DNA from: Chloroflexota bacterium
Lineage (GTDB): Bacteria > Chloroflexota > Anaerolineae > Anaerolineales > Villigracilaceae
Direction of reading: 5' to 3'
NCBI GenBank assembly: GCA_019873735.1
Contig: JAIOAQ010000008.1
Coordinates: forward strand, 16,651-80,650
DNA length: 64,000 nucleotides
Notes under the pieces: generated by a model
Told to the model about the DNA's origin: nothing
What the model saw: only the letters and a program-made list of their open reading frames with translations
Database searches by the model: none
Translations under genes and position numbers: made by a program
Shown: positions 60,418-64,000 of the stretch, in pieces
Position numbering within the stretch: position 1 is the stretch's first letter
Layout of the letters: each line of letters opens with the position of its first letter

Positions 60418-60444
60418 AAGGGTCGCGCTTCAAGCGCGGCCCTT
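60418..60444. terminator. Hairpin between convergent ferredoxin and SEDS-PBP genes
   Basis: AAGGGTCGCGC ttcaa GCGCGGCCCTT, an 11-bp stem with one G-U pair, followed by ATTGATT. It overlaps the stop codon of the minus-strand gene. Confidence 0.5.
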
Positions 60445-63034
60445 ATTGATTAAGCGCAGCCTGCAAGACAGCCTGCCCGATGTATTCGGCCAGGTAAGGA
60501 TTGTCTTCTTCTAGCAGAACGGCAACTGCAACGGGAACCCCCTGCCAGTTGGGCAGACTGCCGCCCACATACCAGGTGTAGGCTTCTTTTGCAGGTAGGC
60601 TCCTTCCGCCGGCCTGCCAGTAGGGTTGTTCGCCGTTTATCAGGGTCTTGATGGCGTCCTGTGCGGCCCCGGCGGGATAGACCCGTACCGCCTCTTGCGA
60701 AGGCGGTAGCACCACCCACCCCTGCTCTGGGGTATTGACGGCCAGGACGAGATGGGGGGCAGGCCGTAGCCCGTCATTGCTCAAGGCGGCTGCAGCCAAA
60801 GCCATTTGTAACGGACTGATTTTCAAGCCATTCAAACCCAAGGCGGCGGTGCCTGGCGTTGTCTTGATTTGTCGCTCTGAGACGGCTGCTGCCGGCAGGC
60901 GAACTTGTGGGACGGTGTAGAATCCCAGCCGGTCGTACAGACTTAAGAGGCCGCCGGTCCCAATTTGGCTGCCAAGAGCGTGGACTGCCGCCGGACAGCC
61001 ATTTTGGGCGGCATAGTTCCAGGTGGGGGCTGCTTCAGATGGGGGGTGCAGACAGTCGGCTTGCGCTCCATTGATTCTTAGCCACAGACTGGATGGCAGG
61101 GCAGGGAGGTCGTTATAAGTGGCCGTCAGCAGGAACGGCCCCAGGGCCGTACCGGGGGGGTAGGTGCTTTGGACAGCCCGATTCAGAAAGGGGGAATCTT
61201 TGGCCGAGAGCAACTCTTGGCCGATGCTTTCGAGCACGCCCGGATTGTATGTGGGGTGAGACGCCATGGCAAGGATTTCGCCGTTGGCGGCGTTGACCAA
61301 AACCAGCGCCCCGGAATGTTTCCCCAACAACTCATCGGCGCGTTTTTGCAATTTCAAGTCGATGCTCAGCCGGACGTCCAGGCCGGGGGGCGGCTGCCCA
61401 TAGAGCAGGTGATGCCACCAGATCAATCTGGCCGGGTTGCCCTCCAGGCCGCGCAGGTACGGGTCGAGGGAGGCTTCCAGGCCGGCCTGACCGTAAGTTG
61501 GTTGCGTATAGCCAACAACGGGGGCCAGTTGTGGGTAAAGGTAAACGCGCCGGAACGAACCCGTCTGGCCGCGCGTAACGGTAATGCCGGAACCATTGCG
61601 ATCCAACAGGCTGCCGCGGCGGACGTAACGGTCTGCCAGTGCCCGGCGCGGGTTGTCGGTTCGGGTGAGCAAGTCTGGGCCGCGCACAACCGCCCACCAG
61701 CCGTTTACCAGCATACTGGCTCCTATTCCAAGCAGAAGCAGACTGTTGAGTAAAACGTACGGCTTTGGATGGTTGAGGGGGGCAGGGGTGTTTTCTTCGT
61801 TGTTGCTGATGATAAGTAAGAACAGCGCGGCCAGAAAACCGCTGAGCAGAGAAGTTCCCCCGTAAGAGACAAATGGCAGCGTGATGCCTGTCAGCGGTAA
61901 GAGGCGCAGCGTACCGCCTACAATCAGGATGGCCTGAATTGCCAGGTAGGTGCTCAATCCGCCGGCAAGCAAGCGGCGGAAATGTCCTGAGGCTCGCAGG
62001 GCAATGTGAAAACCGCGAGTGACCAGAAGTGCCATTGTGGCAAGCAGGGCACTGCTGCCGAGCAGGCCGGTTTCTTCGGCGATGGCCGCAAAGATAAAGT
62101 CGGAGTGTGCTACCGGCACCAAGCCTGGACTTCCCAGCCCTGGCCCGCGTCCCAAGATGCCGCCGTTGGCAACAGCCAAAAGAGACTGAATGATTTGATA
62201 GCCGCTGCCGGCCGGGTCTGTCCACGGGTCCAGCCAGGCGTTCAGACGCAGACGCACGATATCGACGAAGAAGTACCCCACGACGCCGGCCAGGAACAGG
62301 GTGGCAGCCGAGAAGAACAATACGCGCTTTTTGCCTGTTGCCAGGTAGAGCATGGCTGCTTGAAGACAGATAAAAATCGAAGCCGTTCCCAGGTCGCGTT
62401 GAACAAGCAACAAAATCAACGCGGTTCCGCTCAGGACGAATGTGGGGGTCAGAAAGCCGGAGCCGCGTAAACGCGCGTTCGGATGATCGGCGAGGTAGGC
62501 CGCGAGATAAATCACCAGCAGTAGTTTGAGCGGTTCGGATGGCTGAATGTAGATGCCGCAACAGCCCAGCCAGAGCCGGGGACCAATGCCGGCGGGGTTG
62601 GTGCCCAAAACCAAGGTCAAGGCAGTTAACAGCAAACCGCCGGTCAGAAGCACGTATTTGTAGCGGCGCAAGAAATCAAGGGTCGCGGGGAGTCTTAAAC
62701 CGGCGATCAACACGAGGCCGGCAAAACCTATCCAGATGGTCTGGCGCAGGCCAAAGGAGGGAGATAAGCGCCAAACGGTTAACAGCCCCCATCCGCTTAA
62801 GAGGGCTGTGGCCGGTAAGATGTAAGGATCGCGGTCGGCCAGCCATTGCTGCGTTTGCTGATTTGCCAGGGCGAAGATTAAAGCCCAACCTGCCAGCGCC
62901 AGCCAGTGGGTCCAGCGCAGAGCCGTTGGCCAGAGGCGCGTTTGAACTGCAGGGGAGAGGGTCAGCCCCAGCGCATACAGAAACAGCATGCCCCCTGCCA
63001 GAATCAGCAGGCGGTTTTGCAGCCGATCAGTCAT
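60443..63034 (-). CDS. Fusion protein: SEDS (FtsW/RodA) peptidoglycan polymerase + class-B PBP-like domain with degenerate transpeptidase motifs
   Basis: Start placed at MTDRLQNRLL (63034), 8 nt after the MTAP stop. SEDS motifs: QPSEPLKL, HSDFIFAAIAEETG, PLTGITLPFVSYGGTS. A further TM follows, then a PBP dimerisation/pedestal pattern (RRGSLLDRNG, GQAGLEASLD, GEILAMASHPTYNP). The SxxK position reads TALG. Confidence 0.8.
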   Translation of the reverse strand: MTDRLQNRLLILAGGMLFLYALGLTLSPAVQTRLWPTALRWTHWLALAGWALIFALANQQTQQWLADRDPYILPATALLSGWGLLTVWRLSPSFGLRQTIWIGFAGLVLIAGLRLPATLDFLRRYKYVLLTGGLLLTALTLVLGTNPAGIGPRLWLGCCGIYIQPSEPLKLLLVIYLAAYLADHPNARLRGSGFLTPTFVLSGTALILLLVQRDLGTASIFICLQAAMLYLATGKKRVLFFSAATLFLAGVVGYFFVDIVRLRLNAWLDPWTDPAGSGYQIIQSLLAVANGGILGRGPGLGSPGLVPVAHSDFIFAAIAEETGLLGSSALLATMALLVTRGFHIALRASGHFRRLLAGGLSTYLAIQAILIVGGTLRLLPLTGITLPFVSYGGTSLLSGFLAALFLLIISNNEENTPAPLNHPKPYVLLNSLLLLGIGASMLVNGWWAVVRGPDLLTRTDNPRRALADRYVRRGSLLDRNGSGITVTRGQTGSFRRVYLYPQLAPVVGYTQPTYGQAGLEASLDPYLRGLEGNPARLIWWHHLLYGQPPPGLDVRLSIDLKLQKRADELLGKHSGALVLVNAANGEILAMASHPTYNPGVLESIGQELLSAKDSPFLNRAVQSTYPPGTALGPFLLTATYNDLPALPSSLWLRINGAQADCLHPPSEAAPTWNYAAQNGCPAAVHALGSQIGTGGLLSLYDRLGFYTVPQVRLPAAAVSERQIKTTPGTAALGLNGLKISPLQMALAAAALSNDGLRPAPHLVLAVNTPEQGWVVLPPSQEAVRVYPAGAAQDAIKTLINGEQPYWQAGGRSLPAKEAYTWYVGGSLPNWQGVPVAVAVLLEEDNPYLAEYIGQAVLQAALNQ

Positions 63035-63042
63035 CAGGTTTG

Positions 63043-63906
63043 TTATAAGTATTTCTTGACAAGCAGGTCTAATTTTTGACGGGTAGCGGCGGGAATGGCT
63101 TCGCGCCGGGTGATGATGGCGGTTGCCAGGGCGTCTTTGCACTCACAAGCGCGTTCTGCCTCGAAATGGCTGGTCAGGGCTTGAATGGCCTTTTGCGCCA
63201 GTTGCGTATTGTGCTGCAGGGTTTCAATCACCATCTCTACGGTCACCGGCGATTCGCTCACATGCCAGACGTCGTAATCGGTGACGTGCGCCATGACGGC
63301 GTAACACATTTCGGCCTCGCGTGCCAGAAAGGCCTCAGGCGAGGTCGTCATGCCGATCAGCGACATTCCCCAGGCGCGGTAGGTATTGGATTCGGCCCTT
63401 GTCGAGAAACGGGGGCCCTCGATGGTGATAAATGCGCCGCCGGTATGAACGCTTCCGCCTGTCTGACGAACGGCCTGCTCTACCTGCCTTGAAAGGCGCG
63501 GACAGAAAGGTTCGGCAACGCTGACGTGGGCCACCAGGCCTTCGCCGAAGAACGTGCGCGCTCTTCCGCGTGTATTGTCAAAGAGTTGGTCGGGGATGAC
63601 AATTTCGCCCGGAGCGTAGTCTTCTCGCAGCGAGCCGCAGGCGCTGATGCTGACGATTTGCTCCACTCCCAGCATTTTCAGGGCATAAATGTTGGCGCGG
63701 TAATTGACTTCGGCTGGCGTGATGTGATGACCTATGCCGTGCCGCGCCAGAAAGGCAACGCCCACGCCGTTTAGCGTGCCAACGACGATGGGGGCGCTTG
63801 GGCTGCCAAAGGGGGTTGAGGGCGAGACTTCTTGGGCCTCGCCCAGGCCGGGCATATCGTACAGCCCAGAGCCGCCAATGATACCAAGTTGAACGTTGAT
63901 GCTCAT
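63043..63906 (-). CDS. mtnP: S-methyl-5'-thioadenosine phosphorylase
   Basis: 287 aa. LGIIGGSGLYDMPGL N-terminus and the PNP/MTAP family pattern throughout. Confidence 0.88.
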   Translation of the reverse strand: MSINVQLGIIGGSGLYDMPGLGEAQEVSPSTPFGSPSAPIVVGTLNGVGVAFLARHGIGHHITPAEVNYRANIYALKMLGVEQIVSISACGSLREDYAPGEIVIPDQLFDNTRGRARTFFGEGLVAHVSVAEPFCPRLSRQVEQAVRQTGGSVHTGGAFITIEGPRFSTRAESNTYRAWGMSLIGMTTSPEAFLAREAEMCYAVMAHVTDYDVWHVSESPVTVEMVIETLQHNTQLAQKAIQALTSHFEAERACECKDALATAIITRREAIPAATRQKLDLLVKKYL

Positions 63907-64000
63907 TGCGTCTCCAAAATCTCAAATTTTAGGCCGCGGTTGTACCCGTTCCAGATTCGATTCTGCAACTTGCAGGGCAATCAGACTGCTTCCGCAGCGG

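Follow-up and report, generated by a model that had tools for sequence, protein, structure and literature searches.

Why should a bacterium keep a penicillin-binding protein of class B (bPBP) that has lost its catalytic residues, and carry it in the same polypeptide as a polymerase of the SEDS family? This question is raised by a SEDS/pseudo-PbpA fusion gene in a stretch of 64,000 nucleotides (hereafter the window) from a Chloroflexota bacterium of the Anaerolineales (assembly GCA_019873735.1, contig JAIOAQ010000008.1, positions 16,651 to 80,650 of the forward strand). SEDS-bPBP pairs are core cell-wall synthases and targets of beta-lactams. RodA and FtsW polymerise only with the help of a cognate bPBP, and this help is still given by bPBP variants that are catalytically dead. 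To our knowledge, the essential contribution of a bPBP, be it catalytic or allosteric, has been studied only with engineered point mutants. Here we report that the PbpA half of the fusion lacks all three transpeptidase motifs, yet is under purifying selection. We consider it probable that this tethered, non-catalytic PbpA acts as an activator or scaffold of a third SEDS polymerase, with cross-linking carried out in trans.

The fusion coding sequence is complete and specifies 863 amino acids on the minus strand (60446..63034, stop codon 60443-60445), according to the list of open reading frames and their translations. It lies in a single uninterrupted open frame that extends over 60443-63142. 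The supported start is the ATG at 63034, because the N-termini of the closest homologues, which are 863 or 864 amino acids long, agree with it; the stop codon of the upstream methylthioadenosine/purine nucleoside phosphorylase gene (MTAP; mtnP) lies 8 nt before this ATG. A GTG start at 63142 was rejected because the longer frame runs into the MTAP gene. In order, the product contains a SEDS polymerase of 10 transmembrane (TM) helices, a short cytoplasmic linker, the TM anchor of the PBP itself, a pedestal and a transpeptidase-fold head. The original prediction, made from the letters of the window, had placed a SEDS protein and a bPBP in one open reading frame, and the frame, the Pfam matches and 120 full-length homologues of the same architecture all agree with it.

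The SEDS half is intact, as had been proposed. Pfam PF01098 (FTSW_RODA_SPOVE) matched residues 94-413 (61796..62755, minus strand) at 239 bits (cut-off 26.4), and the preceding residues 1-93 form the first TM helices. Sequence comparison gave E values of 3.5e-33 with E. coli RodA (8TJ3_B), in which HSDFIF was aligned on HTDFIF and D312 corresponded to its Asp, and of 8e-33 with the structure of P. aeruginosa FtsW. The family motifs QPSEPLK, HSDFIF, and PFVSYGG(T/S)S were all found, and P165, S166, E167, P168, K170, S311, D312, Y391, G392, and G393 are invariant in the 120 homologues. The SEDS half is most likely an active lipid II polymerase. NCBIfam scores did not discriminate between FtsW and RodA for either SEDS protein of the source genome. 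A cytoplasmic linker of ~13 residues separates the SEDS domain from an eleventh TM helix at residues ~424-450 (61685..61765, minus strand; AlphaFold helix 424-450). This helix corresponds to the N-terminal membrane anchor of a class B PBP, and its position is matched by the start of the separate PbpA gene in relatives without the fusion.

The part that follows the anchor has the build of a PbpA. A PbpA-type pedestal (PBP_dimer_2, PF21922) was assigned to residues 473-551 (61382..61618, minus strand) with a Pfam score of 25.7 bits, only just short of the cut-off (27), and R473, G474, G508, Y509, G515, G518, E520, D524, L527, R528, G529, P549, and G551 are its invariant residues. The head, a transpeptidase fold without catalytic residues, occupies residues 575-863 (60446..61312, minus strand), as judged from Pfam PF00905, Foldseek, predicted local confidence (pLDDT) and the ratio of nonsynonymous to synonymous substitution rates (dN/dS). 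The PF00905 Transpeptidase match covered residues 575-784 at 60.8 bits (cut-off 22.1); because it ends at profile position 201 (positions 1-201 of 299), the third of the profile that bears KTG was not recognised. An AlphaFold2 prediction with the family alignment had a pLDDT of 86.9 and a predicted TM-score (pTM) of 0.74, with pLDDT values of 84-97 in the head. In a Foldseek search of this model against the PDB, the top matches were PbpA of Mycobacterium tuberculosis (Mtb) and the transpeptidase (TP) domains of Coriobacteriia, with TM-scores of 0.75-0.79 (normalised to the target) over ~430-450 aligned columns including the pedestal. The TM anchor, the PBP_dimer_2 pedestal and the penicillin-binding fold, which together define a class B PBP of the PbpA subtype, are therefore all present.

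To locate the motif columns, the C-terminal 442 residues were aligned by phmmer to Mtb PbpA (3UN7/3LO7) and to Eggerthella lenta 4MNR. The former SxxK is T629-A-L-G632 (61139..61150), with YPPG-TALG falling on PG-S-TF-K; the former SxN is G679-C680-P681 (60992..61000), on S-C-N of Mtb PbpA; and the former KTG is G810-R811-S812 (60599..60607), with A808-G-G-R-S on A-G-K-T-G (GKTGTAE of 4MNR), all on the minus strand. When hhalign was used to compare the profile of the 120-member family with that of 16 Chloroflexota PbpA proteins whose motifs are intact (probability 100%, E 1.2e-63), the correspondence at motif 1 was reproduced and no K[ST]G appeared in the family. The original prediction had called all three motifs degenerate, and this holds; its SxxK and KTG columns and their nucleotide coordinates were right, but its SxN column was misplaced: the AQN that it had chosen (61001-61009) is three residues too far upstream, and the true column, GCP, is equally degenerate. 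Lacking SxN, KTG, and a nucleophile/general-base pair, the PbpA half should be unable to acylate, and the loss of the motifs predicts that it does not bind beta-lactams covalently; it would then qualify neither as a penicillin-binding protein nor as a D,D-transpeptidase.

Is this loss peculiar to one protein? A homologue search of a collection of 5.8 billion proteins gave 3859 matches among the candidates scored, and the best 120, which we analysed, are 53-88% identical to the fusion, come from Anaerolineae, Anaerolineales or Chloroflexi where named, and are all fused. Together with the 150 best representatives of 50%-identity clusters, found with the PBP half alone, they make a family set of 270 sequences. 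The catalytic motifs are missing in all 120 closest homologues and in all 150 representatives. The fusion and the motif loss, which had been thought unusual, are thus the rule within the lineage, in Anaerolineales-type genomes. The original prediction had asked whether orthologues share the TALG substitution; the Ser and Lys columns vary, and the motifs are lost throughout the set. The Ser column holds T, S, D, A, P, N, G, M, or E; the SxN is x-C-P or deleted, and the dead proteins that keep the SxN segment all have the same N-to-P change.

These columns bear on whether the head could still be an enzyme, using an alternative nucleophile such as Thr629 or a relocated active site, which would make the protein a truly bifunctional synthase. 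A Thr stands at the Ser position here and in about one third of the relatives, and the fold of the head is intact in the AlphaFold model and by Foldseek. However, the nucleophile column is not conserved; the Lys column consists of T, G, Q, and A, with a K in only one of the 270 sequences, which itself has no KTG; no K[ST]G motif occurs in any of them; and no alternative conserved constellation of Ser, Lys, and Asn appears among the invariant columns. We therefore regard residual catalysis as very unlikely.

The selection acting on each part was estimated by the Nei-Gojobori method against homologues that are 88% and 83% identical. The dN/dS was 0.05-0.08 for the SEDS domain, 0.04-0.08 for the pedestal and 0.09-0.11 for the dead head, values that are approximate because dS is ~1, near saturation. 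There is clear purifying selection on the dead domain. A partner that has no catalytic residues and is yet under selection throughout the clade is therefore evidently kept for a non-enzymatic job. The same values bear on an artefact, either an assembly or frameshift join of two genes or a PBP half drifting neutrally towards a pseudogene. The source genome is a metagenome-assembled genome of 3.06 Mb in 71 contigs, 94.75% complete, which might have favoured such an error; against it, 120 assemblies made independently of one another, among them a 5.37-Mb contig and genomes in a single contig, have the same single open reading frame, and there are no internal stops, the dN/dS is ~0.1 and the structure prediction is confident. 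An artefact, which the original prediction had named as a possible refutation, can thus practically be dismissed.

We then asked from what the fusion was derived. The MTAP gene (63043..63906; PNP_UDP_1, Pfam 163.9 bits) lies upstream on the same strand, preceded by the 3' end of an fhaB-like gene (63922..64000, minus strand; TM and FHA, 154 amino acids), which runs past the window to position 81036 of the contig (C8), and by an fhaA-like FHA gene on the same strand (contig C8 81033-81914). Both upstream genes were read from the open reading frames of the contig, and their products had Pfam FHA scores of 74 and 67 bits. The order fhaA-fhaB-mtnP-fusion was found on this contig and at three further loci (L027, L028, and L049), which include a 5.37-Mb genome and an independent contig; L027 contains, in this order, a gene with FhaA_N and FHA, an FHA gene, PNP_UDP_1 and the fusion. 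No gene for a PknA/PknB kinase or a PP2C phosphatase was found in the 22-kb locus L027.

In a survey of 301 Chloroflexota genomes queried with the PBP half, 40 loci were fetched. At 34 of the 40, a separate PbpA gene with intact SxxK, SxN, and KTG was present, usually directly after a separate SEDS gene, and most of these live loci have the same two FHA genes ahead, with or without MTAP. The other six are dead: three fused (one in a genome of the same order and two in genomes of family f23, a second fused and dead family in another class), two unfused but adjacent (G262 and G059, of the same class as the source), and one of the query lineage. No live fused protein was found in this 40-locus sample. 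Open frames of 800-1045 amino acids outside the Anaerolineales (L040-42, L044, and L047) had been considered as live fusions, and proved to be overlapping frames of adjacent genes. Across the 40 loci, most have the two FHA genes upstream, and BLAST found no match to PP2C in any. Because the gene order fhaA-fhaB-mtnP is common to both, the fusion gene is the in-place orthologue of a normally live SEDS and PbpA pair in an FHA-linked locus, fhaA-fhaB-[mtnP]-SEDS-pbpA. In many Chloroflexota lineages, live and dead alike, MTAP, the gene of a salvage enzyme, holds this place after fhaB and before SEDS within a cell-wall operon. At L035, L055-L057, and L060, fhaA-fhaB is followed directly by a live PbpA gene and the locus has no SEDS gene; the adjacency of SEDS and PbpA is therefore variable across the phylum.

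The history of the two events was examined with a maximum-likelihood tree (LG+C20+F+G4, PMSF) of 53 PbpA-type domains, in which the three motif regions were masked. A single branch, with UFBoot 95 and SH-aLRT 87 and present in 94% of bootstrap trees, set apart all 17 dead sequences, which nested within the live Chloroflexota sequences. Since the dead versions form one clade, there was probably one inactivation, although the dead sequences are on longer branches and long-branch attraction may contribute to this clade. The fused state needs two changes on the tree, and a quick tree agrees. The simplest history would be a single inactivation followed by two fusions, or by one fusion and a later fission. 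That fusion and inactivation were simultaneous was rejected, because G262 and G059 are dead but separate and the fusion needs two changes; the existence of unfused dead versions shows that catalytic death and fusion are separable.

Which SEDS system of the organism does the fusion represent, and what could cross-link its product? In the source genome (G000) we found only two SEDS genes, one of which is rodA in an mreBCD-pbp2-minCDE-rodA cluster whose PBP2 has intact motifs. Neither ftsZ (PF12327, PF00091) nor ftsW or ftsI was found in this genome. We considered the fusion as the FtsW of the organism and rejected this, because 29 of 30 relatives (G001-G030) possess ftsZ and a separate ftsW ~9 kb away, the fusion being the third SEDS; the missing dcw cluster of the source genome is therefore almost certainly an assembly gap and not a biological absence. 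Nearly all relatives have three SEDS proteins and a few have four matches. In complete genomes of the same family, FtsW lies ~4 kb from an FtsI-type bPBP, RodA adjoins PBP2, and the fusion is again the third SEDS; these genomes also hold a MecA_N-type bPBP and class A PBPs, and no live PbpA paralogue was found in them. By gene content, the fusion is thus a third SEDS system without a cognate live transpeptidase. A second divergent FtsZ-like gene is present in several genomes of the same order: in G030 (G030:C323:21671-25144) it lies ~2 kb from an unfused SEDS gene that resembles the SEDS half of the fusion, and second FtsZ_C matches occur in G019, G020, G022-G026, and G029.

Other enzymes are available for cross-linking, which the original prediction had assigned to another PBP or an L,D-transpeptidase. 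Besides PBP2, the source genome encodes three class A PBPs, an orphan bPBP, and seven YkuD L,D-transpeptidases. The orphan is a lipoprotein with the architecture MecA_N-PBP_dimer-Transpeptidase and intact motifs (L001; G000:C29:28645-32661). Four of the seven YkuD genes are in tandem (L015/L009/L013/L011; G000:C4:8127-11555), which in a 3-Mb genome suggests that 3-3 cross-linking, or the attachment of proteins or polymers, plays a large part. Within a few kb of the MecA_N bPBP gene (upstream, C29:23191-27758) are a gene for a PP2C-type phosphatase and two genes for large secreted or membrane proteins; this PP2C gene could supply, from another place in the genome, the phosphatase that the FHA-linked locus lacks.

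Taking these results together, a tethered activator or scaffold of the third SEDS polymerase is the reading that we favour. A SEDS polymerase would require the TM helix and the pedestal of its partner bPBP for activity and regulation, which would account for their retention, and the folded head is probably a non-catalytic positioning or docking module. For strands made by the third SEDS, the cross-links would be supplied in trans by the MecA_N-type bPBP, by class A PBPs, or by the YkuD L,D-transpeptidases, of which there are seven. The FHA proteins may point to phospho-Thr control of the fusion machine, and the conserved residues of the head itself may indicate an additional binding role.

Several observations weigh against this reading, in addition to the near-saturation of dS. 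The head has invariant residues outside the catalytic motifs (W773, W806, W821, G825, and E842) and is conserved well beyond the need of a mere tether, a hint that it has a specific role in its own right. Of the 120 close homologues, 91, including most genomes of the same family, are without a ~55-residue segment of the head that is kept here (residues 640-697, window ~60944-61117), and part of the fold is therefore dispensable. The MecA_N bPBP is missing from both f23 genomes and is common where PbpA is live. Finally, the polymerase activity, the activating part of the pedestal, and the enzyme that cross-links in trans are all inferred.

The first of these points leads to another explanation, in which the dead head has been repurposed as a sensor for the stem peptides of peptidoglycan, or as a docking platform for a regulator or for a particular cross-linker (an L,D-transpeptidase or the MecA_N bPBP), and is conserved for binding and not for SEDS activation. 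Selection on the head is nearly as strong as on the SEDS domain, and its clade-wide invariant residues, three Trp among them, are non-catalytic. The ~55-residue segment carries the GCP relic of SxN together with C661 (nt 61052-61054) and C680, a conserved Cys pair that flanks the former active site and is kept wherever the segment exists (121 of the 124-126 representatives retaining it); these are probably the Cys of S-C-N in Mtb PbpA and an upstream partner Cys. Furthermore, the orphan live MecA_N bPBP was found in 30 of 30 dead-type genomes of the Anaerolineae class sampled. However, the segment with the SxN helix and the Cys pair is deleted in most close homologues, so that not all of them keep the former substrate groove, and a specific coupling of the MecA_N bPBP to the dead protein was not supported in view of its distribution over live-PbpA genomes and its absence from f23. 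We thus regard a head kept purely for binding as possible but considerably less likely than the tethered activator or scaffold. By the same deletion, the head has been pared down further in sister lineages.

Among the closest known systems is the actinobacterial cluster fhaA-fhaB-pstP-rodA-pbpA-pknA-pknB (Mtb Rv0017c/Rv0016c; PbpA 3LO7, 3UN7), which likewise combines two FHA genes, a SEDS gene, and a PbpA with a short PBP_dimer_2. Mtb PbpA was the best structural match to the C-terminal half of the fusion (TM-score 0.76) and among its best PDB sequence matches, and the Cys of its S-C-N is retained in the fusion. In contrast to the actinobacterial cluster, SEDS and PbpA here form one open reading frame in which SxxK, SxN, and KTG are all lost, MTAP stands between fhaB and SEDS, and no PP2C or PknB-type kinase gene is adjacent. 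The source organism also has, beside this actinobacterial-like locus, the separate canonical mreBCD-pbp2-rodA elongasome.

SEDS-PbpA fusions with the same order of SEDS, TM helix, pedestal, and transpeptidase fold occur in Coriobacteriia (Eggerthella lenta 4MNR; Atopobium parvulum 4JBF, 4N1X, 4QJG, and related entries). These entries were deposited as "peptidoglycan glycosyltransferase", and the fusion finds its top matches, by fold as well as by sequence, in their TP domains. They keep PGSTFK and GKTGTAE and were crystallised as penicillin complexes according to the entry titles, and they are therefore live transpeptidases, whereas the Anaerolineae fusion has lost the motifs. More broadly, 117 SEDS-bPBP fusions from InterPro, for example those of Senegalimassilia and Rhodococcus jostii, are described in PMC12516126, where they are treated as putative "bifunctional bPBPs". 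The fusion resembles these in having glycosyltransferase, pedestal, and transpeptidase modules in one polypeptide, but only the first module would be competent. That article contains no mention of a catalytically dead clade or of Anaerolineae, and no description of a dead SEDS-PBP clade or of Anaerolineae SEDS biology was found in the literature; SEDS-bPBP fusions as such are already published.

A functional precedent comes from division proteins. B. subtilis tolerates a dead PBP2b when the MecA_N-type PBP3 is present (Sassine 2017, cited in PMC12516126). In this rescue by PBP3 (PbpC), and in C. difficile, where inactive bPBPs are combined with an alternative bPBP, SEDS needs the physical presence of the bPBP and not its catalysis, and the cross-links come from a second bPBP with MecA_N architecture. 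The orphan MecA_N-PBP_dimer-Transpeptidase lipoprotein of the source genome recalls PBP3, and the MecA_N bPBP would hypothetically be an attractive partner of the fusion. The B. subtilis and C. difficile cases, however, are engineered point mutants, whereas the inactivation here is natural, ancient, and clade-wide, and concerns a third SEDS system that is neither dcw nor mre, for which the co-occurrence of the MecA_N bPBP is not specific.

The downstream neighbour of the fusion gene in the window is a convergent ferredoxin gene. Between the two stop codons (60420-60442), the sequence GGGCCGCGC-TTGAA-GCGCGACCC makes a hairpin that is rich in GC and has one mismatch; TTTCCCTT comes after it. This hairpin could be a shared terminator of the fusion and ferredoxin genes; a consensus terminator scan did not call it.

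What, then, does the fusion mean for cell-wall synthesis in these bacteria? It offers a natural experiment, in which a large environmental clade must have kept a bPBP module very long after losing every catalytic residue, and in two lineages has welded it to the polymerase. It is thus a natural system for mapping the bPBP surfaces relevant to SEDS activation. The SEDS machine is predicted to be intrinsically insensitive to beta-lactams, and catalogues that call such fusions "bifunctional" synthases or penicillin-binding proteins over-call their function. A more speculative proposal, to which we give somewhat less weight than to the repurposed head, is that the third SEDS and its dead PbpA work without a cognate D,D-transpeptidase, that the head has given up binding substrate for catalysis and recruits the MecA_N bPBP or one of the YkuD enzymes, and that the machine is switched by phospho-Thr through co-transcribed FhaA and FhaB. 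If true, filamentous Chloroflexota would couple polymerisation to cross-linking in a new way.

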